The notes under the pieces were generated by a model, which ran no database searches, was not told the origin of the DNA, and saw only the letters and a program-made list of their open reading frames with translations. A program made the translations under genes and the position numbers. From Minisyncoccota bacterium (lineage in GTDB: Bacteria > Patescibacteriota > Minisyncoccia > Moranbacterales > UBA2206): a stretch of 64,000 nt of DNA. The DNA lies in the NCBI GenBank assembly GCA_031291955.1, contig JARLIA010000011.1:6511-70510 (forward strand), written 5' to 3'. How positions within the stretch are numbered: position 1 is the stretch's first letter; every line of letters starts with the position of its first letter. This document shows positions 16,615-61,262 of this stretch, one piece after another.

Positions 16615-19257
16615 GACAAAGCGTTAAAAAAATGCAAGTATTTGCCTCACGGATTGTACCAATATTTGGAAATCGCTAAGGCTGCTTAATGATAAAATCA
16701 ACTATAAAATTTAGAAGCAAAAGCGGGTGAAACTTCGTGTTTAAGTTTGTCTTAAACGAGGACCCGTCGGGTTCTTTTTTAATTCGCGCGGAAATCATTA
16801 TAATCATTGTCGCGATTATAATCATTATAAAAATTTCCGCATGAACGAACTTTGACAATTTAGGTCTTGATCAAAAATATTCAGTTCCGCTGTCAGCGGA
16901 AATGGAAGTGGATATTTGCGATCAGTCCTCTGATATCTTCGCAATAGGGTATCAGAGATGTAGGTAATGCAATATGCAAACTGTGTAGTTGGCAATTTTG
17001 GTAATTGCTAACTGCTAACCTGCCCGCAATGCTTCGCAATAGCGATGCAGGCGGGCTAAAAGAAGAGCGGTAATATTAATGCATACGGTGGATGCCTTGA
17101 CATCAAAGAGCGATGAAGGACGTAGCAGTCTGCGATAAGCTTCGGGGAGGTGACGAGCAACCTTTGATCCGGAGATTTCCGAATGGGACAACCCAGCCCG
17201 TAAGGGTTATCATTAACTGAATTCATAGGTTAATGAGGCGCACCCGGTGAATTGAAACATCTTAGTAGCCGGAGGAAGAGAAAACAACAGTGATTTCGCA
17301 AGTAGTGGCGAGCGAAAGCGGAACAGCCTTGAGTCATTAGCGATTTTGTTAGCTGAACGTTTTGGAAAGAACGGCCAGAGAGAGTGAAAGCCTCGTAGGC
17401 GAAAACGGAATCGTGGAACCAGGACTCAAAACAAGTAGGGCGGGACCGGAGAAATCCCGTTTGAAGATGGGAGCACTATCTCCCAAGGCTAAATATCTTT
17501 GATGATCGATAGCGAACTAGTACCGTGAGGGAAAGGTGAAAAGCATCCCGATGAGGGAGATGAAATAGTATCTGAAACCGTATGCTAACGAAGAGTTAGA
17601 GCTCCGACACTTGTGTCGGGGTGATAGCGTGCTTTTTGTAGAACGATCCAGCGAGTTAGTTCTATGCGGCTTGGATAAGCGACGTTGTCGTGTATCCGTA
17701 GTGAAAGCGAGCCTTAACCGGCGAATATGTCGTATGGACTAGACCCGAAGCCAGGTGAGCTATTTATGAGCAGGGTGAATTTACTGTAAAAGGTAAAGGA
17801 GGCCCGAACCCACGCACCGTGCAACATGCGGGGATGACTTGTGAATAGAGGAGAAATTCCAATCGAACTTGGCGATAGCTGGTTCTTCCCGAAATAGCTT
17901 GAGGGCTAGCGTTGGGCAACTATGTTTCGGAGGTAGAGCTACTGAATGAGGATTCGCGGTTCGCCGTAGGATTCTCAACCAAACTCCGAATTCCGAAATA
18001 ACTATCCCAGCAGTCAGTACTCCGGGGCTAAGCTCGGAGCACAAGAGGGAAAAAGCCCATGACCGCCGTCTAAGGTCCCAAAATCTATGTTAAGTGGAAA
18101 AGGAGGTGAAGTTTCTTATACACCTAGGAGGTTGGCTCAGAAGCAGCCATCCTTTAAAGAGTGCGTAACAGCTCACTAGTCTAGAGACTTCGCGCCGAAA
18201 ATTCAACGGGGCTCAAACATAGTACCGAAGACGCGGATTTGATATGTATTTATACATATTGAGTGGTAGGGAAGCGTTCCATATGCGCTGAAGCGCCATG
18301 CGTGAGCAGACGTGGAGTGTATGGAAGTGAGAATGCTGGAACGAGTAACCGCAATTGGGGTGAGAACCCCCAACACCGAAAGTCTAAGGTTTCCTGGGCA
18401 ATGGCAATCATCCCAGGGTTAGCCGGGCCTAAGGCGAGGCCGAAAGGCGTAGTCGATGGACATATGGTTAATATTCCATAGCTTTCACATTATTCGATGG
18501 AGTGACGCATCGCTGTACTTCTTGCCGATTATTGGATTTCGGTAGGAATAGCGAGGTGGCCAGACAGGCAAATCCGTTTGGCAATACACCAAGCCGTTTC
18601 TCGAATTCCGGTTCGCCGGAAGAAGAGGAAGGAGCGCGGTGCCAGGAAAAGCTTCTAAGGTTCGTAATGTGAAATCCGTACTAAAACCGACACAGGTAGA
18701 CTGGGCGAGTAGCCTAAGGTGAACGAGTGAACCTTCGTTAAGGAACTCGGCAAAATAGCGTCCGTAACTTAGGAATATGGACTACCGGTGCTTAGCTTGC
18801 TAAGCGCTGGTCGCAGCGAAAGATACCAAGCGACTGTTTACCAAAAACACAGGTCTCTGCAAACCCGCAAGGGGATGTATAGGGGCTGACGCCTGACCAG
18901 TGCCGGAACGTTAACGGGAGCGGTGAAAGCTTATCCCCGAAGCGCCGGTGAACGTCAGCGATAACTATAATCGTTCTAAGGTAGCGAAATTCCTTGACAG
19001 GTAAGTTCTGTCCCGCATCAAAGGCGTAACGACTTGGTAACTGTCTTAACGAAGAGCTCGGTGAAATTGCAATGACGGTAAAGATGCCGTCGACCTGCAG
19101 CAAGACGAAAAGACCCCGTGGAGCTTTACTATAGCTTGGCATTGCGTTTGAGGTTATGCTGCCTAGAATAGGTGGGAGCCTTTGAAATCCCGATTCAGGT
19201 CGGGATGGAGGCAACAGTGTAATACCACTCTGTGTGATTTTAAACGCTAACCCTGGG

Positions 19258-19375
19258 CTGTTAGAAAATTGGAAACATTTTTTTAACTCCTCAGCTTTAG
19301 ATTCAAGTAATAGTGTAAAAAGTATCTATGATGATATAAGTTGAGAGTTATGGAATGATTCTTTCTAGTTTTCTA
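19258..19375 (+). other. AT-rich ~118-nt insertion/expansion segment within 23S, replacing a short hairpin upstream of GGACAGUGCCUGGUGGGUAGUUUGACUGGGGCGG
   Basis: Alignment by eye to the E. coli 23S sequence in this block shows ~35 nt there versus ~150 nt here. Confidence 0.4.
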
Positions 19376-19398
19376 CCAGTCCGGGGACAGTGCCTGGT

Positions 19399-19431
<33 letters not shown>

Positions 19432-19592
19432 GGCAACGGAGGCGTTTACAAAGGTAGGCTAGGTCCGGATGGAAATCGGGCCGGTAGTGCAAACGCATAA
19501 GCCTGCTTTACTGCAAGACTCATTAGTCGATCAGTCACGAAAGTGGAAGTTAGTGAACCGACCATCGCTCATAGGAGCGTGGAAGATCATCA

Positions 19593-19625
<33 letters not shown>

Positions 19626-19650
19626 CCTCCCAAGAGTCCACATCGACGGA

Positions 19651-19711
<61 letters not shown>

Positions 19712-19749
19712 TGGCTGTTCGCCAATTAAAGTGGTACGCGAGCTGGGTT

Positions 19750-20470
19750 CAAACCGTAGAGAAGTCGAAAGTTTATAAAGTTATAAAGTTCATAAAGTCG
19801 ACTTTTGTACAGTTTGAACCCGAGGAAAGACATCAAATAATCACGGCGGCCTTGAAGAGTAATCTTCAAGTGCGAAACTGACTCATATCGATGAAGTCCT
19901 GTTGCATGACAAACTGTCATGTGCTAGGATAATATCGAGGGAAGTCGTGTATGCTAGAATCAATTTCGTCAATTGAAAAATCTTATTTGGCTGGTTTTTT
20001 GGATGCTGATGGGAGCATTTACGTGCAAGCAAAACCAAACGAGACTTATCGTTTCGGTTTTCAAATCGCGTCGTACATAGTTTTCTATCAATCGTCTAAA
20101 GATGAAAAAGCCTTTTCCGACATGTGTTCCATTATTAAACTGGGGCACAAGCGTGTCAGAAAAGACGGTATCATAGAATATATAATCAGCAGGCAAGAGG
20201 AAATTATTCAATTTATTAATTTAATTGAGCCTTATATAAAACTGAAAAAAGCTCAATTGGAATTATTGAAAAAGATAATTGATCTTAAGAAGAAAGTCCA
20301 GGATAAAAAAGATTTTATAAAATTGATAAATTTGATTGATAAATTTCGCGAATTAAATTATTCAAAGAAGCGAAAAAAACGTACATTGACCCCGTAGAGA
20401 CTAAACGTCAGTCTCCTAATTCAATAAAATTAGGATGAAGGTATAGTCCAATGCACGTAGCAATACGTGG
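19750..20470 (+). mobile_element. Group I intron in 23S domain V/VI (inserted within GAGCUGGGUU|..ACGUCGUGAGACAG), encoding a LAGLIDADG endonuclease
   Basis: Flanking exon sequence rejoins to the conserved 23S block. The 5' exon ends in U and the intron ends in G (cgtgG|aaaacatgcgtgagacag). Confidence 0.65.
19951..20397 (+). CDS. Intron-encoded LAGLIDADG homing endonuclease
   Basis: 148 aa; LAGFLDADGSI motif. Confidence 0.8.
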   Translation: MLESISSIEKSYLAGFLDADGSIYVQAKPNETYRFGFQIASYIVFYQSSKDEKAFSDMCSIIKLGHKRVRKDGIIEYIISRQEEIIQFINLIEPYIKLKKAQLELLKKIIDLKKKVQDKKDFIKLINLIDKFRELNYSKKRKKRTLTP

Positions 20471-21088
20471 AAAACATGCGTGAGACAGGTTGGTCTCCTA
20501 TCTGCTGTAGGCGTTATTGCTTGAGAGGACACTTTCCTAGTACGAGAGGACCGGAAAGTACGAACCTCTGGTGTACCAGCTGTTCCGCCAGGAGCATCGC
20601 TGGGTAGCTACGTCCGGACGGGATAACCGCTGAAGGCATATAAGCGGGAAGCCCACCTCAAGATTAGGCAATTTTTGGTGCTTGCACCAAAACGATTTGC
20701 TAGAAGATGACTAGTTTGATAGGTTTCAGGTCTAAGCGGAGTGATCCGTTAAGCCGAGAAATACTAAAAAATCGAACATTATCTCTCTTTTTTCATTTAA
20801 CATGGAACATAGAACATGGAACATTTCCTTTGGGAGTTTGTTTCATGCTTCATGTTTCATGCTCTATGATATGGTTAGCAGTTAGCAGAAACTAAATTAT
20901 TGCGATAATTGAAAGAAAAAAACATCCTGGATGTTAATAGGATAATATGTTATAATGCCTACTATGACCGACAAGTACAAAACAAGTTTGAAGTTTACAC
21001 TGGTGTTTTTTTCTATCATATTGGTTACGGTTATGTTTTTTGTGTTCTTTTCACCAGTGATAAACGCATTTTAGAAAAAAGACATTAT

Positions 21089-21198
21089 TTTGGTGGTTCT
21101 AGCGAAGTGGTCACACCCGATCCCATTCCGAACTCGGTCGTTAAGCACTTCCGCGCCGATGGTAGCTCTTCGCGAGCAAGAGTAGGTCGCCGCCAGAA
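21089..21198 (+). rRNA. rrf: 5S rRNA
   Basis: TTTGGTGGTTCTAGCGAAGTGGTCACACCCGATCCCATTCCGAACTCGGTCGTTAAGC...GCCGATGGTAGC...GCCGCCAGA matches the 5S consensus. Confidence 0.8.
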
Positions 21199-25969: not shown

Positions 25970-27238
25970 ATGGAACATTTCGAAATTACAGGTGGGAGAA
26001 AATTGAGCGGGGAGATTAATGTCCGAGGTTCAAAGAACGCTACTACGCCGATTTTGGCGGCCACGGTTCTCACGAAAGAAGAGTGTATTTTGTCCAACGT
26101 GCCCCTCATTGAAGACGTTTTTCGCATGGTTGAGATTTTGGAAAGCATGGGATCCGAGATCAAATGGCTAAACGAAAGAAAGATTTCGATCAAAAACGAC
26201 AAAATTGATCCTTTAAAGATGGATGTGGAAAAAGTGAAAAGGCTGCGTTCTTCCATTTTGCTTTTGGGATCACTCTCTGGGCGTTTTGACAATTTCAAAA
26301 TCTATCATCCGGGTGGGTGCGTGATCGGCAAGCGGCCATTGGGAACCCACTTTGACGCGATGGCCAAGATGGGAATAGACATCAAGCAGAAAGAGAAATT
26401 CTATTTGGTTGATGCTAAAAAAAGAAAAACGGGAAAAATAATTCTGCGCGAGTTTTCAGTGACGGCTACGGAAAATGCCATGATGCTAGCGGCCGCGCTT
26501 CCCGGGAAGACAATCATAAAAATCGCGGCTGCTGAGCCGCACGTCGAAGACCTGGGAAAATTTTTGGTTTCAATGGGCGCCAAAATCAAAGGACTCGGTA
26601 CGCACACTTTGGAAATTACCGGCGTTAAAAAACTGTGTGGTACAAAGCACGTTATCATTCCCGACGCTAACGAGGCGGCCACATTCCTTATTATGGGGGT
26701 GGCCACGGATAGCCCGATAAAAGTGAATGGCGCTCGGGAGGAACATCTCGAATTGGTGCTGGAAAAATTGCGCGAGTTTGGAGCGGATTTCAAGATAGGA
26801 AAAAATTTCATCCAGGTAATCCCCGCCGAAAAATTGAAGGCGGTTTCCAAGATCGATATGCGCATTTATCCGGGCGTTCCTTCGGATGTCCAGGCGCCGT
26901 TAGGCGTTTTGGCCACTCAGGCGGAGGGGCACACGCTTATTTTTGACACGCTTTTCGATGGGCGCTTCAACTACGTGAACGAGCTGGAAAAGATGGGCGC
27001 CAAAGCCTACATTCTCAACCCGCATCAAGTCGTCATATCTGGGCCTACTAAGCTTCATGGCAACGGAACGAAAAGTTTCGATCTGCGGGCCGGCGCTTCG
27101 CTCATCATTGCGGCCCTTGTTGCCGAGGGCAAGACGGTTATCGAAGATATCTACCAAGTTGATCGGGGATATGAAAAGATTGAGGAGCGATTGCAAAAGC
27201 TGGGCGCGGAGATAAAGAGGCTGCGAAATACGAAATAA
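25970..27238 (+). CDS. murA: UDP-N-acetylglucosamine 1-carboxyvinyltransferase MurA
   Basis: GGRKLSGEINVRGSKNATTPILAATVL N-terminus; full-length conservation. Confidence 0.9.
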   Translation: MEHFEITGGRKLSGEINVRGSKNATTPILAATVLTKEECILSNVPLIEDVFRMVEILESMGSEIKWLNERKISIKNDKIDPLKMDVEKVKRLRSSILLLGSLSGRFDNFKIYHPGGCVIGKRPLGTHFDAMAKMGIDIKQKEKFYLVDAKKRKTGKIILREFSVTATENAMMLAAALPGKTIIKIAAAEPHVEDLGKFLVSMGAKIKGLGTHTLEITGVKKLCGTKHVIIPDANEAATFLIMGVATDSPIKVNGAREEHLELVLEKLREFGADFKIGKNFIQVIPAEKLKAVSKIDMRIYPGVPSDVQAPLGVLATQAEGHTLIFDTLFDGRFNYVNELEKMGAKAYILNPHQVVISGPTKLHGNGTKSFDLRAGASLIIAALVAEGKTVIEDIYQVDRGYEKIEERLQKLGAEIKRLRNTK

Positions 27239-27260
27239 ATACGAAATAGAAAGTACGAAA

Positions 27261-28059: not shown

Positions 28060-29067
28060 ATGCTTGTACGAAAAATCGGAATCGATCTCGGGACGGCCAA
28101 CGTTTTGGTGTTTGTGCCGGGGAAAGGAATTGTGGCTAACGAGCCGTCGGTGGTTGCGATAACTCTCGCGGAGAATCGCGTTTTAGCGGTGGGAAACGAC
28201 GCCAAGGAAATGCTTGGGCGCACCCCGGATACCATCCAGGCCTCGCGACCGATGAAAGACGGCGTGATCGCGGATTATAAAATCACCGAAGCCATGCTCA
28301 AATATTTTATCAATAAAGTTTCCGGCAAGTTCCGGCTGATTCGGCCAGAGGTGATGATCTCCATTCCGGTGGGCGTCACTTCCACCGAAAGAAGAGCGGT
28401 GGTTGACGCGGCGGTGCGAGCCGGCGCCAAAGCAGCTTACGTTGTTAAAGAACCGATGTTGGCCGCCATCGGGGCCGGGATTCCGATCGCTAATCCGTCC
28501 GGCAATATGATCATCAATATTGGCGGCGGGACTTCCGAAATCGCGGTGATTTCCTTGGGTGGCATTGTTTCGGCCACCAGCGCTCGAGTGGGCGGAAATA
28601 AGATTGATCAGGCCATTTCCGACTACATCAAACGAAAATACAGTTTGGCTATCGGCGACCGGACGGCTGAGGAAGTGAAAATTACCATTGGCTCGGCCAT
28701 CGCCCAAGTAAAAGAAGAATATATGGACATTCGCGGGCGGGATTTGACAGGCGGGCTGCCGAAAACTGTCAAAATATCATCGAACGAAGTGACGGAAGCC
28801 ATTCAAGACGAACTGCGCGAGATCATCAACGCCATCAAAAAAGTTCTGCAAACCACGCCACCGGAACTGGCGGCTGATATCATGGACAAGGGTATGGTGC
28901 TTTCCGGCGGCGGCGCGCTCATCAAAAACTTGGATGCTCTCATCACTAAGACTATTGGCGTTCCGAGCTACGTGGCCGACGATCCGCTTTTTTGCGTCAT
29001 CAAGGGCATCGGGATCGCGCTTGAGAACCTGGATGTGTATAAACGTACTATCATGCTGTCAAAGTAA
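28060..29067 (+). CDS. mreB: Rod shape-determining protein MreB
   Basis: IGIDLGTANVLVFV, actin-fold phosphate motifs; full length. Confidence 0.9.
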   Translation: MLVRKIGIDLGTANVLVFVPGKGIVANEPSVVAITLAENRVLAVGNDAKEMLGRTPDTIQASRPMKDGVIADYKITEAMLKYFINKVSGKFRLIRPEVMISIPVGVTSTERRAVVDAAVRAGAKAAYVVKEPMLAAIGAGIPIANPSGNMIINIGGGTSEIAVISLGGIVSATSARVGGNKIDQAISDYIKRKYSLAIGDRTAEEVKITIGSAIAQVKEEYMDIRGRDLTGGLPKTVKISSNEVTEAIQDELREIINAIKKVLQTTPPELAADIMDKGMVLSGGGALIKNLDALITKTIGVPSYVADDPLFCVIKGIGIALENLDVYKRTIMLSK

Positions 29068-29198
29068 ATTTCTAATTTTCAATTTCTAATTTCTAAACAA
29101 TTTCCAATACTTCAATGATTAAATTTTAAAGCATTTTTAATTTAAAAATTGAGAAATTAAAAATTGTTTGAAAATTGAAAATTGAAAATTGAAAATTC
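29066..29198. repeat. MITE-like intergenic element, copy 1: left arm aaatttctaattttcaatttctaatttctaaacaatttccaat, right arm aaattgtttgaaaattgaaaattgaaaattgaaaatt with (GAAAATT)n
   Basis: The arms are imperfect reverse complements. It fills the spacer from the mreB stop to the next gene. Homologous copies at 47216-47372 and 61126-61262. Confidence 0.65.
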
Positions 29199-29207
29199 GG
29201 CAGTTTT

Positions 29208-30338
29208 GTGAAGATTGGCATCGACGCTTCTCGGGCTTTCATTTCGAAGCGTACCGGCATCGAGGAATATTCTTATCAAACCATAAAACACTTGAGAAAT
29301 AAATTGGATAAAGCTCAAGTTTTTTTGTATTTAAGAAAAAACCAAAAAGTGGATTTTGACTTGCCGGAAAATTGGAAAGTGAAAATAATCAACTGGCCGC
29401 GACTGTGGACGCAAGCGGGACTGTCGCTGGAACTGCTGTTTCATCCGGTTGACGTTCTATTTGTGCCGGGACACGTCGCGCCGTTGATTCACCCGAGAAA
29501 TACTATTGTTACAATTCATGGTTTGGAATTCGAAACGTATCCGGCCGGGTATTCTTTTTGGGAGAGGAGCTATATGCGTTTCGCGGTAAAATTGTCCTGC
29601 CGGTTTGCCAAAAAAATAATCGCAGTTTCGAAAAATACGAAGAAAGATTTGACGGATTTATACAAAATTACGGAAGGGAAAATTGAAGTGGTCCATGAAG
29701 GAGTGAATAATAATTTTCAATTTTCAATTTTTCCGGCTACGCCGGATCTCGCGAAGCGAGACAATTTTCAAACAATTTCCAATGATAAAATTTCAAATTA
29801 CAAACCATACTTATTATTTATCGGTCGGTTAGAAAAGAGGAAGAATATCGAAGGAATAATTGACGCGTATAAAATCCTGGTCGAAAAACACAAGATTCCG
29901 CACGGTCTGGTGTTGATGGGTGGTCCGGGATATGGTTTTGAAACTATAAAATTGAAAATTGAAAATTGTAAATTGAAAATTGAAACTCTTGGTTATGTCG
30001 ACGAAGCGGTGAAATGGAAATTATTGTCCCACGCGGATATATTTTTATTTCCAAGTTTCTACGAGGGTTTCGGCTTGCCGGTTTTGGAGGCGCAAGGCGT
30101 AGGTACGCCCGTCGTCACTTCTAATGTTTCGTCCCTGCTGGAAGTGGCCGGCGAGGGAGCGGCTTATTGCGTCCCTGGCGAGCCGTTTTCCATTGCCGAA
30201 GCAGCCTGGTCTATTATTCGTGACAAAGATTTTCGAGAAAGCGTAATTGAAAAAGGGCAGGAGAATGTCAAAAGGTTTTCCTGGGAAAAATGCGCGGAAG
30301 AGATTGCTAAAATTTTGACAGGGGAATGGACAAATTAA
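29208..30338 (+). CDS. GT4-family glycosyltransferase (GTG start) containing in-frame heptamer-repeat insertions
   Basis: LLFIGRLEKRKN, FPSFYEGFGLPVLEAQ and GTPVVTS motifs. Inserted segments NNNFQFSIFP...NFQTISNDKISNYKP (29700-29800) and KLKIENCKLKIET (29948-29985) derive from the MITE arm / (TTGAAAA)n repeat. Confidence 0.8.
   Translation: MKIGIDASRAFISKRTGIEEYSYQTIKHLRNKLDKAQVFLYLRKNQKVDFDLPENWKVKIINWPRLWTQAGLSLELLFHPVDVLFVPGHVAPLIHPRNTIVTIHGLEFETYPAGYSFWERSYMRFAVKLSCRFAKKIIAVSKNTKKDLTDLYKITEGKIEVVHEGVNNNFQFSIFPATPDLAKRDNFQTISNDKISNYKPYLLFIGRLEKRKNIEGIIDAYKILVEKHKIPHGLVLMGGPGYGFETIKLKIENCKLKIETLGYVDEAVKWKLLSHADIFLFPSFYEGFGLPVLEAQGVGTPVVTSNVSSLLEVAGEGAAYCVPGEPFSIAEAAWSIIRDKDFRESVIEKGQENVKRFSWEKCAEEIAKILTGEWTN
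29948..29985 (+). repeat. (TTGAAAA)5 heptanucleotide tract inside the GT4 CDS
   Basis: ttgaaaattgaaaattgtaaattgaaaattgaaac. The unit length is not a multiple of 3. Confidence 0.8.
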
Positions 30339-31391: not shown

Positions 31392-32213
31392 ATGAAAATG
31401 GAAGAATTACTGATCAAAATAGAAAACGAATTGAAATTGAGAAATTATAGCCGGAAAACCATCAAAAGCTATCTTGCTTGTTTAGCGGAATATTTTCGTT
31501 TTGTGAAAGTTGTCGGCAAAAATCCTGACGTGGCGAAAATAAAGCAATTCCTTTTGGCCAAACAAGACGCGGGACAATCTTCCCAAACAACCAATGTCCA
31601 TTTGCACGCCATTAAATATTTCTATCAAGAAATCACAAAAAGTACCGTGGCAATTGAAATTAAGTTCGCCAAAACTGCCAGCAAACTGCCGGTCGTGTTG
31701 TCGCGATTGGAAATTCAATCGATTCTGGATAACATCAGCAATGAAAAGCATTATTTAATGATCGCGCTGGCCTATGCCGGAGGACTGAGGGTAAGCGAGA
31801 TTACTAATTTGAAAATAAAAGATATTAATTTGGATGAATTGACGATCCATCTGAAAGGCGCCAAGGGCAACAAGGATCGCATCACTATTTTTCCAGAAAA
31901 GTTAAAAAATGATTTCAGCAAGCTTATTGGCGGAAAAAATAGCAACGATTTTGCGTTTGGAAGCGAGCGTGGCGGAAAACTGACCGAACGGACGGCGCAA
32001 AAGGTTTTTGAGAATGCCTTGAAAAATGCTAAAATTCAAAAAGACGCCACTTTCCATTCGCTACGCCACAGTTTTGCCACGCATCTCTTGGAAAACGGCA
32101 CGGACGTGCGCTATGTTCAAGAATTGCTCGGCCATGCTAATATCAGAACAACGCAGATTTATACAAAAGTGACCAATCCGATGTTAAAAAACATCAAGAG
32201 CCCATTATGCTAG
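31392..32213 (+). CDS. Site-specific tyrosine recombinase (XerC/XerD-like, phage-integrase family)
   Basis: N-terminal SAM-like domain (NYSRKTIKSYLACLAEYF). C-terminal HSLRHSFATHLLENGTDVRYVQELLGHANIRTTQIYTKV with the catalytic Tyr. Its 3' end overlaps the next gene by 7 nt. Confidence 0.75.
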   Translation: MKMEELLIKIENELKLRNYSRKTIKSYLACLAEYFRFVKVVGKNPDVAKIKQFLLAKQDAGQSSQTTNVHLHAIKYFYQEITKSTVAIEIKFAKTASKLPVVLSRLEIQSILDNISNEKHYLMIALAYAGGLRVSEITNLKIKDINLDELTIHLKGAKGNKDRITIFPEKLKNDFSKLIGGKNSNDFAFGSERGGKLTERTAQKVFENALKNAKIQKDATFHSLRHSFATHLLENGTDVRYVQELLGHANIRTTQIYTKVTNPMLKNIKSPLC

Positions 32214-33355
32214 ATGAAAAAAAAATAAAAGTTGCCCTAGTCCATGATTTTCTCATTCAGTTCGGCGGCGCCGAGCGGTTTTTGGAGGCGCTGGCGGAAA
32301 TGTTTCCGGCGGCGCCGATTTATACGATCCTATATGATCCGGAAAAAATGCGGGGAAAATTTGCCGGCCGCGACATCCGGACTTCCTTCTTTCAGAAATT
32401 ACCGAAATGTTTACGCAAGCGATATAAATTTCTCCTGCCGCTTCTGCCGACAGCGCCGGAAACTTTCGATCTGCGGGATTTTGATCTAGTGATTTCTTCC
32501 AGTGGGGCTTGGTCGAAGGGGATTGTGACGCGATTGAATACTATCCATATCGCCTATATTCACAGTCCGATGCGGTTTGTTTGGGATTATAATGAAAAAT
32601 ATTTGCAGGAAGAAAGAAAGAGAAAGTTTGGTTTATTCATCCGTCCACTTTTTAGTTATTTCCGTCTTTGGGACAAGTTGGCGGCCGATCGCCCGGATTA
32701 TTTAATTGCCAATTCGAAATATACGCAGGCCAGGATAAAGAAATATTACAGAAGAGAGAGCGAAGTGATTTACCCGCCGGTGGAAATGAAATCCGAAATC
32801 CGAAATCCGAAATCCGAAATAAATTCAAAATTAGAAGCACAAAATCCGAAACAGAATACCAAGTATTTTTTAATTATTTCGCGGTTGAGCGCGTATAAAA
32901 AAATCGACAAAGCTATTAAAGCTTTCAATAAATTGAAATTGCCGTTGGTGATTGTCGGCGAAGGAAAAGAAGCAGAGCGGCTCAAAAAATTGGCCGGAGA
33001 AAATGTGAAATTTTTAGGATTCGTGCCGGAGGAAAAATTGCCGGAAATTTATGCCGGCGCCCGGGCGTTTATTTTCCCCGGCGTGGATGATTTCGGTATC
33101 GCCCCGGTCGAGGCTATGGCGCACGGTGTGCCAGTGATCGCTATTCAGAAAGGTGGCGCCAAAGAAATTGTGGAAGAAGGAAAGACTGGTGAATTTTTCG
33201 CTGAAGCGACCCCGGAAAAAATCGCGGCGGCGGTGAGTAAATTCCTAGAAAAAGAAAAGAACTATGACAGGGAATATATCACCAAGACGACGGAAAGGTT
33301 TTCAAAAGAAAGATTCGTGATGGAATTTAGGGAATATATCGAAAATATGATTTAA
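32207..33355 (+). CDS. Glycosyltransferase (GT4/GT1 fold)
   Basis: ISRLSAYKKIDKAIKAF...GFVPEEKLPEIYAGARAFIFPGVDDFGIAPVEAMAHGVPVIA. Confidence 0.75.
   Translation: MLDEKKIKVALVHDFLIQFGGAERFLEALAEMFPAAPIYTILYDPEKMRGKFAGRDIRTSFFQKLPKCLRKRYKFLLPLLPTAPETFDLRDFDLVISSSGAWSKGIVTRLNTIHIAYIHSPMRFVWDYNEKYLQEERKRKFGLFIRPLFSYFRLWDKLAADRPDYLIANSKYTQARIKKYYRRESEVIYPPVEMKSEIRNPKSEINSKLEAQNPKQNTKYFLIISRLSAYKKIDKAIKAFNKLKLPLVIVGEGKEAERLKKLAGENVKFLGFVPEEKLPEIYAGARAFIFPGVDDFGIAPVEAMAHGVPVIAIQKGGAKEIVEEGKTGEFFAEATPEKIAAAVSKFLEKEKNYDREYITKTTERFSKERFVMEFREYIENMI
32788..32815 (+). repeat. (GAAATCC)4 heptanucleotide tandem repeat inside the glycosyltransferase CDS
   Basis: gaaatccgaaatccgaaatccgaaatcc followed by gaaataa; translated as KSEIRNPKSEI. 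Confidence 0.9.
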
Positions 33356-46899: not shown

Positions 46900-47217
46900 A
46901 TGACCGATCAAAATCAAGCACCTTCCGATCAAACTGATTTGCAAAAAACCCTGATCGACGAATTGGGGCTGGCAAGCCTCCCGCAAGAAAAACAGGAAGA
47001 ATTGCTCGTCAAAATGACGGAAGTGGTTTTGAAGCGCATCTTTGTCGAGACGATGGAGAAATTGTCTGAGACCGACCAAGAAACTTATGCTAAAATGATA
47101 GATGAGAACACTCCGCCGGAAGAGCTGGAGAAATTCCTGATGGAAAAGATTGCCAACTATGACGAGTTGGTGAAGAAAGTGGTCGATGGTTTTCGGGCGG
47201 AGATGCTAAAAGAATAA
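46900..47217 (+). CDS. Small acidic hypothetical protein
   Basis: 105 aa, Glu-rich, no motifs. Confidence 0.35.
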   Translation: MTDQNQAPSDQTDLQKTLIDELGLASLPQEKQEELLVKMTEVVLKRIFVETMEKLSETDQETYAKMIDENTPPEELEKFLMEKIANYDELVKKVVDGFRAEMLKE

Positions 47218-47372
47218 TTTCTAATTTTCAATTTCTAATTTCTAAACAATTTCCAATGCTTCAATGACTAAATTTTCAAACGTTTAATAACTTGAAAAAA
47301 TTATTGAACTGTTTGTTTCGCTATGCGAGATCTGGTGCAGCCAGAAAAATTGAAAATTGAAAATTGAAAATT
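47216..47372. repeat. MITE-like (GAAAATT)n element, copy 2
   Basis: Same arms as 29066-29198, with a different ~70-nt centre. Confidence 0.6.
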
Positions 47373-61125: not shown

Positions 61126-61262
61126 ATAAATTTCTAATTTTCAATTTCTAATTTCTAAACAATTTCCAATGTTTTAATGATTGAATTTTCAAGCTACATT
61201 CTTAATTTAAAAATTAAGAAATTAAAGATTGTTTGAAAATTGAAAATTAAAAATTGAAAATT
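61126..61262. repeat. MITE-like (GAAAATT)n element, copy 3
   Basis: Left arm identical over ~45 nt to copies 1 and 2. Confidence 0.6.

Follow-up and report, generated by a model that had tools for sequence, protein, structure and literature searches.

Heptamer-armed palindromic repeats within a GT4 glycosyltransferase gene of a Minisyncoccota bacterium are probably passengers comparable to Rickettsia palindromic elements

Introduction

The closest described counterparts of the DNA element treated here, a palindrome with arms of tandem heptamers of which a part lies in frame within a GT4 glycosyltransferase gene of a Minisyncoccota bacterium, are the Rickettsia palindromic elements (RPEs), which were reportedly the subject of a study by Ogata et al. 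in Science in 2000 (290:347). The gene belongs to a stretch of 64,000 nucleotides from contig JARLIA010000011.1 (assembly GCA_031291955.1), called the window throughout. According to a review (PMC10969869), RPEs are multi-copy palindromes of ~100-150 bp that are found between genes as well as in frame within unrelated housekeeping genes, where they are translated as an extra peptide, and their insertions are common to orthologues of related species and lie at sites that the fold tolerates. The element of the window is alike in that it has intergenic and in-frame genic copies, that the latter are shared by orthologues, and that fold-tolerant sites are occupied in the linker of the GT4 protein and at the junction of catalytic and anticodon-binding domains in methionyl-tRNA synthetase (MetRS). 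It differs in that it occurs in another phylum, is unrelated in sequence and has arms of ~4.4 tandem heptamers whose unit varies by lineage. Furthermore, the genic copy is often a half-element that tends to replace linker sequence instead of adding to it, a second tract is located in a folded helix, and nucleotide conservation exceeds amino acid conservation. The proposed likeness is therefore one of behavior only, and membership in the Rickettsia RPE families by sequence is not claimed.

[quoted passage not shown] Like them, the element of the window is of small size and does not code for protein, is present in multiple copies that mostly lie between genes, and has inverted arms that form a long hairpin. 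Its imperfect inverted arms of ~31 nt, its size below ~300 bp and its multiple copies are those of a MITE. In contrast to MITEs, its arms are tandem-repeat arrays and not unique terminal inverted repeats, and no target-site duplication, parent insertion sequence (IS) or transposase of the REP-associated tyrosine transposase (RAYT) type was identified, no search having been aimed at a parent IS. The element corresponds to a MITE in part only, and since orthologous spacers hold copies with different units, turnover in place fits better than random transposition.

A third point of comparison is provided by simple-sequence contingency loci, such as the tetranucleotide repeats in lic2A and lgtC of Haemophilus or the homopolymers in the lgt genes of Neisseria. 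In such loci, too, a repeat unit that is not a multiple of three lies inside the open reading frame (ORF) of a glycosyltransferase for surface glycans. However, contingency tracts are long, pure, polymorphic among isolates and near the 5' end of accessory genes, whereas the tracts described here are short, necessarily interrupted, structurally embedded, conserved in length and part of a syntenic core gene. A full-text literature search for heptanucleotide, MITE or palindromic repeats in Patescibacteria, Parcubacteria or the candidate phyla radiation (CPR) found no description of such elements, and RPE-analogous elements in Patescibacteria are apparently previously undescribed. Whereas the phenomenon is already known, heptamer-array arms, the replacement of linkers, conservation of nucleotides above that of amino acids and the host phylum are new.

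Results

A left half-element is read in frame within the GT4 gene

The GT4 gene, its two repeat tracts (sites 1 and 2) and the three full copies of the element in the window comprise the following features, all on the + strand.

29208..30338, +: coding sequence (CDS) of a GT4 glycosyltransferase with GT-B fold, 376 aa, GTG start (ORF list, Pfam, AlphaFold2 (AF2), Foldseek)
29709..29798, +: site 1, in-frame left half-element encoding about aa 168-197 (blastn-short against the intergenic copies, core match, AF2)
29712..29731, +: heptamer array (AATTTTC)2.9 of site 1, encoding NFQFSIF (Tandem Repeats Finder (TRF), pattern search)
29733..29761, +: nested GC module of site 1 with two mini-hairpins, CCGGC-TAC-GCCGG (29733-29745) and TCTCGC-GAA-GCGAGA (29747-29761), both present in the predicted fold
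29763..29784, +: one AATTTTC unit and the non-repeat core AAACAATTTCCAATG (core exact at 29770-29784)
29948..29985, +: site 2, heptamer tract of right-arm type, (AAAATTG)5.4, encoding KLKIENCKLKIE in the C-terminal Rossmann domain (TRF)
29967..29969, +: codon TGT (Cys254), the sole interruption of the site 2 tract, in place of the in-frame TGA of a perfect repeat
29067..29197, +: intergenic copy A, in the spacer between mreB stop and GT4 start; left arm (AATTTCT/AATTTTC)4.3, right arm (GAAAATT)4; RNA fold -32.2 kcal/mol, z -5.3
47215..47372, +: intergenic copy B, whose right arm contains a GC mini-hairpin module; fold -37.7 kcal/mol, z -4.9
61129..61262, +: intergenic copy C; fold z -2.6

Site 1 is a single contiguous left half-element that consists of heptamers, the GC double hairpin, one AATTTTC unit, the core and ATAAAATTTCAAAT, and the peptide predicted from the element-derived segment is NFQFSIFPATPDLAK. 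The initial annotation of this DNA had placed sequence of the element's left arm in frame inside the GT4 gene, and this was confirmed by the array and by the core, exact in site 1, that it has in common with the three intergenic copies, where the core is located at 29095 (one mismatch), 47244 (exact) and 61157 (exact). Copy B carries a homologous GC module at 47318-47346 (reverse complement, 90% over 41 nt, E 9e-9), and the stem of the GC mini-hairpin changed in a compensatory way from CCGGC/GCCGG in site 1 to CTGG/CCAG in copy B. Loci outside the window are referred to by number. In the metagenome locus L133 the module order of site 1 is repeated in a left arm, and in L118 the GC module is located in a right arm, immediately upstream of the start of another GT4. 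An alternative view of site 1, a reversed right arm joined to a left arm, was dropped in favor of one left half-element in which the GC module is nested, on account of L133 and L118.

The full copies of the window are composed, in this order, of ~4.3 heptamers (AATTTCT/AATTTTC), the core AAACAATTTCCAATG, a loop, CATTGTTTG and ~4 heptamers (GAAAATT). In general terms, the palindromic element, which measures about 110-160 bp across a family common among Patescibacteria, has ~31 nt of heptamers (AATTTYY)~4.4, a non-repeat core AAWCAATTTCCAATG, a variable loop with nested GC mini-hairpins in some copies, CATTGTTTR and ~31 nt of complementary heptamers (GAAAATT). All three full copies of the window (131-158 bp each) sit between co-directional genes and form long hairpins that fold equally strongly on both strands. 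The double heptamer AATTTTCAATTTTC, allowing at most one mismatch, was found 15 times in the window when 0.51 occurrences were expected, a count that was reached in 0 of 100 shuffles. In the orientation seen here, the left arm is stop-free in all frames and a genic copy can thus be read through.

Host protein and location of the two tracts in the fold

Pfam analysis of the host protein detected Glyco_transf_4 (PF13439; aa 17-167, E 5.7e-13) and Glycos_transf_1 (PF00534; aa 195-352, E 3.1e-31). An AF2 model based on an alignment of 26 sequences reached a mean predicted local distance difference test score (pLDDT) of 87.9 and a predicted template modeling score (pTM) of 0.85, showing two Rossmann-like domains, and the best Foldseek matches of the model were MshA and BshA (E ~1e-20) as well as PimB', at TM ~0.7-0.77. 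The EX7E motif is present as E286 and E294 (YEGFGLPVLEA), invariant across 26 homologues, and the protein is 100% identical to a protein of a Candidatus Pacebacteria metagenome-assembled genome (MAG) at NCBI. With Pfam domains, fold and EX7E motif in agreement, the product of 29208-30338 is a GT4/GT-B glycosyltransferase, as had been annotated initially, and the sequences, coordinates and translations then quoted were borne out. A syntenic block murA-mreB-GT4-GT4-holB-POTRA (FtsQ-like) is retained in four related contigs, and the context of the gene is conserved housekeeping and not accessory or contingency.

It had been claimed initially that both tracts interrupt conserved GT4 blocks. For site 1 this agrees with what we found. 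The linker between G165 and R207 amounts to 41 aa in the window compared to 31 aa in most orthologues, a median of 31 aa in 60 distant GT4 homologues and 24 aa in the 88%-identical relative L001, and AF2 residues 170-192 have a pLDDT <50, which makes site 1 the disordered linker between the two Rossmann domains. Site 2 behaves differently: the segment G241-G262 has 20 aa compared to a median of 22 aa in 60 GT4 homologues (28-45% identity), and AF2 predicts a helix (244-254) and a strand (258-260) with a pLDDT of ~92. Native length together with confident helix and strand indicates that site 2 is not an insertion but native secondary structure encoded by heptamer-periodic DNA. Of the two sites, only site 1 acts like an insert.

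Described initially as (TTGAAAA)5, site 2 is indeed a heptamer array (period 7, 5.4 units, 93% match) without being a pure one. Its reading is AAA TTG AAA ATT GAA AAT TGT AAA TTG AAA ATT GAA; a perfect repeat would give AAT TGA at codons 253-254, and the T at 29969 abolishes this stop, which in orthologues is avoided differently, by TTA (L085), TGC (L083) or TAT (L082). These data bear on the initial proposal that the tract is a switch for phase variation, in which slipped-strand changes in the number of 7-nt units would toggle the glycosyltransferase in and out of frame. With 7 not divisible by three, a gain or loss of units within the CDS would do so, and the protein is a cell-envelope enzyme of the type encoded by classical contingency loci. 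However, a perfect site 2 is impossible in frame as every third unit would contribute TGA, every orthologue has fixed a substitution that removes the stop, perfect runs comprise less than 3 units (2.9 at site 1, ~2.7 and 2.4 at site 2), and site 2 encodes the confident helix and strand at a constant length that is kept in orthologues. As to the origin of site 2, an element arm may have been its donor by conversion, or A-rich codons that were similar beforehand may have slipped locally, and additional element-like pieces were noticed at site 2 of L083 and L084.

Site 1 is shared by orthologues and conserved as a nucleotide sequence

Homologues with equivalent peptides and no repeat DNA had been named initially as evidence that would speak against the proposed roles of the tracts. 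Equivalent peptides are indeed present in orthologues at 50-70% protein identity, but these orthologues are not repeat-free, as they also carry heptamer DNA and core at site 1, with the following units:

(AATTACC)4: L082
(AATTTCC)3: L083, L085 and L002
(AATTTCG)4: L084
(AATTTTC)4: L003
AATTTTC: the window

All units of an array change in concert between lineages. Both element arms are found within the linker of L084 and L014, and L002, L003 and L004 have no complementary site 2. As most orthologue linkers have 31 aa, equal to the distant median, the element has largely replaced the linker and not lengthened it. The element at site 1 would go back to the ancestor that these orthologues share.

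In order to describe how the tracts are conserved, the mean pairwise identity over nine orthologues was calculated for each codon position, for which composition alone leads to an expectation of ~0.35. The identities at codon positions 1/2/3 were:

Rest of the gene: 0.70/0.80/0.44
Site 1: 0.73/0.74/0.73
Site 2: 0.71/0.71/0.54

In windows of 8 codons, third-position identity was 0.70-0.81 at site 1, the maximum of the gene, and did not exceed 0.62 outside both sites, while amino acid identity at site 1 was below the gene average. Flat conservation across codon positions combined with below-average amino acid identity demonstrates that site 1 evolves as a nucleotide element and not as a protein segment. 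Conservation of site 2 is intermediate and more coding-like. The initial suggestion that element-derived DNA serves as linker peptide thus stands for site 1 in so far as a disordered linker of this origin is common to orthologues, but the flat codon positions are not those of a conserved peptide.

The core also shows variants that go together. The variant AAAC occurs in all four copies of the window, the genic one included, whereas the genic core has AATC in L082, L083, L002 and L130 and the close variant AATCAAATT in L085 and L001, and copies that share one metagenome contig agree mutually (L118, L121, L152).

In the 88%-identical relative L001, ~60 nt with the heptamers and the GC module are missing. 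Compared to the window, L001 is a mosaic of identities, with 95% over 29208-29400, 76.5% over 29401-29711 and 99.2% over 29773-30300. The switch in identity occurs at the element core (~29773) and could be due to recombination at the repeat or to a chimeric metagenome assembly. Misassembly as the source of the repeats themselves was rejected, since the same features are present in independent orthologue assemblies. In the mreB-GT4 spacer of L001, an element with different unit sequence (ACGCGTA/CGTTCCA) was observed.

With regard to changes in tract length, orthologues differ at the tracts only by in-frame changes, and 0 frameshifted alleles were found among the 120 homologues listed. Variants of this allele that differ in tract length gave no match in JGI metagenomes (conserved flanks, gap of 23-53 nt), and near-identical contigs besides L001 were not found. 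Site 2 is identical in L001, which is weak evidence as this stretch is 99% identical overall.

The element occurs in other enzymes and in most spacers nearby

JGI metagenome contigs were scanned with the pattern AATTTYYAAWCAATTTCCAATG, leading to at least 120 matches, of which 83 were analyzed. Among these, 68 of 83 were intergenic and 15 of 83 were located in frames free of stops over 150 aa or more, each with the same orientation. The element NFQFSIFNFQSISND was in frame in MetRS in four independent contigs (L103, L117, L145, L160), each time at the same interdomain site, the junction of catalytic and anticodon-binding domains, and also in pyruvate kinase and 5'-3' exonuclease (L105; L096), the exonuclease having a second heptamer insert. 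Both GT4 paralogues are among the in-frame hosts, the second one, in the window, with this feature:

32788..32820, +: heptamer array (GAAATCC)4.7 in the second GT4 gene (CDS 32207-33355), in frame, encoding KSEIRNPKSEI in the equivalent interdomain linker

Heptamer peptides also occupy this linker in GT4s from other CPR lineages (L035, L038). A census of proteins using a duplicated 21-aa element peptide as query gave 1 weak match, for which the handling of low-complexity sequence is probably to blame. At the spot of the array, orthologues of the second GT4 contain unrelated repeats, namely a TCAGGAA array (L082), a GC hairpin (L083) or NFQFPISNFQSISND (L155).

Period-7 arrays of many unit sequences fill spacers of all related loci, and the mreB-GT4 and GT4-holB spacers are occupied in nearly every locus. 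Whatever the unit sequence, array length is almost always ~31 nt (4.3-4.7 units; window, L002-L004, L014, L082-L085), and this near-constant arm suggests a constraint on arm length.

Several further repeats were noticed. The ATG of the element core (CAATTTCCAATG) apparently serves as start codon of CysRS (MTKFSKIKLYN...; L139) and of a secreted protein (MTQFSKLKK...; L153, L159), so that half-elements would abut gene starts. A (CGAAATA)n array at 27224-27260 overlaps the 3' end of murA (25970-27238), whose last codons and stop lie inside the array. The rRNA spacer at 20799-20888, between 23S (17065-19817) and 5S (21089-21198), contains (AACATGG)3.7, (TTCATGC)3.1 and (GTTAGCA)2.1, and unit sequences of this spacer recur in L085 (239-338) and L084 (1610-1626). 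Other in-frame inserts of GT4 orthologues are a conserved 35-aa block PARNASLFSLALFIQKILKKLGIKTDYNTHSDAGGP after PxxH (P0029, P0060, P0065, P0095) and a 32-aa block in P0096, which probably belong to different repeat families. Between the two GT4 genes of the window, the segment 30558-32213 harbors a minus-strand ORF of 217 aa without Pfam match and a tyrosine recombinase (31392-32213; Phage_integrase). In L082, L083 and L084 the two GT4 genes are adjacent, and the segment resembles a small inserted module.

Discussion

We consider it likely that the repeats of the GT4 gene are passengers resembling RPEs, that is, copies of a multi-copy palindromic element that are read through and persist where the protein tolerates them. 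A copy of the element would land in a coding region or enter it by gene conversion, would be read through and would survive at a tolerant position. At site 1, the half-element would occupy the naturally variable, disordered linker between the Rossmann domains, and concerted evolution, gene conversion with other copies or re-insertion would preserve its resemblance to the element family in nucleotides and not in amino acids. The core variant AAAC that genic and intergenic copies have in common, the agreement of copies on the same contig and the concerted change of units lead us to infer such conversion or re-insertion. In the strain of the window, site 1 is ~60 nt longer, with extra heptamers and a GC mini-hairpin module. 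A tract of right-arm type may have overwritten the DNA coding for the native amphipathic helix and the strand at site 2, leaving its length unchanged, and would have been kept open by the change from TGA to TGT. Translation would give a floppy linker together with an ordinary helix, and the repeats would be selfish, presumably neutral passenger DNA and not a regulatory switch.

Several observations weigh against this explanation. Neither a transposase nor a target-site duplication nor an empty site was identified, with no search aimed at a parent IS, the sole recombinase noticed in the window being the tyrosine recombinase at 31392-32213, and flanking direct repeats in ~70 aligned copies were not consistent, although AATT...AATT ends would mask a short A/T duplication; only the number of copies and their distribution thus lead us to infer mobility of the element. 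Site 2 has not gained length and its K-I-E codons (AAA ATT GAA) are common to repeat-free orthologues, so that it may never have been an insertion. The mosaic of L001 means that the extra 60 nt of site 1 may stem from allelic recombination or chimeric assembly and not from activity of the element. Related genomes were examined over ~21 kb each, and within-genome concerted evolution is therefore seen in few cases. Finally, the flat codon-position pattern of site 1 could mean selection on an RNA or DNA function.

This last point leads to the main rival explanation, unlikely in our view, in which a functional signal at the nucleotide level, such as a hairpin between site 1 and site 2, an array bound by protein or a signal for pausing or processing where the domains meet, is maintained and the peptide is incidental. 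It would account for the flat conservation and the third-position identity, the highest of the gene, at site 1. In the window, a pairing of site 1 with site 2 is predicted that bridges ~165 nt of coding sequence (minimum free energy z -3.1; duplex -35 kcal/mol, z -3.2), and pairing is also strong in L083 (z -4.3) and L085 (z -4.5). The occupation of the same spacers (mreB-GT4 and GT4-holB) in many related loci despite different units, the near-constant arms of ~31 nt and the compensatory change of the GC mini-hairpin between genic copy and copy B point in the same direction. However, pairing is weak in L082 (z -1.7) and L084 (z -2.5), a complementary site 2 is absent in L002, L003 and L004, and when the two sites are taken from different loci they pair no worse than cognate combinations, which means that there is no covariation between the sites. 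Both strands fold equally, giving no signature of an RNA strand. Rfam showed no match at the elements (whole window at gathering thresholds; 29000-30100 by E-value), a promoter scan detected only weak TTGAAA-17-GAAAAT matches (9/12) within right-arm repeats, and a terminator scan found none at the elements. Moreover, homogenization by gene conversion accounts for the same conservation pattern. A conserved long-range pairing of sites 1 and 2, strong in the window, was discarded as main explanation on account of the missing cognate-specific covariation and the weak pairing in L082 and L084.

Similarly doubtful is a broader version, according to which heptamer-armed palindromes are an actively maintained nucleotide-level system, where homing or conversion would repaint permissive linkers with the current variant of the genome, or where an RNA or DNA signal (pausing, processing, protein binding) would act at domain boundaries and gene junctions. 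Flat codon-position conservation, constant arms of ~31 nt and the occupancy of orthologous spacers would fit it.

Less probable still is a purely local origin, by which A/T-rich codons slipped in place and no element was inserted or copied in. The native length of site 2 and the presence of AAA ATT GAA in repeat-free orthologues agree with it, the DNA that encodes IKDKIEKSKYK in these orthologues is itself loosely 7-periodic, and site 1 linkers of orthologues have the typical length of 31 aa. However, site 1 contains a non-repeat core of 15 nt and a GC double hairpin in the order seen in intergenic copies of the window and in unrelated metagenome contigs, which slippage cannot create, and the same composite occurs in unrelated proteins. 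Local slippage is plausible for site 2 only.

The phase-variation switch, to which the turnover of arrays on evolutionary time scales (units changing together between lineages) might be added as support, is disfavored, if not formally refuted, and very improbable given the short and interrupted runs, the constant length of site 2 and the conserved housekeeping synteny, all the more as the same arrays are found in MetRS, pyruvate kinase and 5'-3' exonuclease, enzymes for which switching on and off would be senseless.

Genomes of Patescibacteria are tiny and thought to be streamlined. Nonetheless, genes of essential enzymes (GT4s, MetRS, pyruvate kinase) and most nearby spacers contain members of this element family. 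Its presence accounts for many of the odd peptides of low complexity, such as NFQFSISNFQSISND and KSEIRNPKSEI, that CPR protein databases contain, and annotators as well as structure predictors should be aware that such segments are element-derived. Heptamer repeats are also likely points of recombination or misassembly in MAGs, and the codon-position signature provides a simple test that separates element-derived from protein-selected segments. If the comparison with RPEs is true, these repeats would constitute a second, phylogenetically remote case of selfish palindromic DNA that reshapes proteins.

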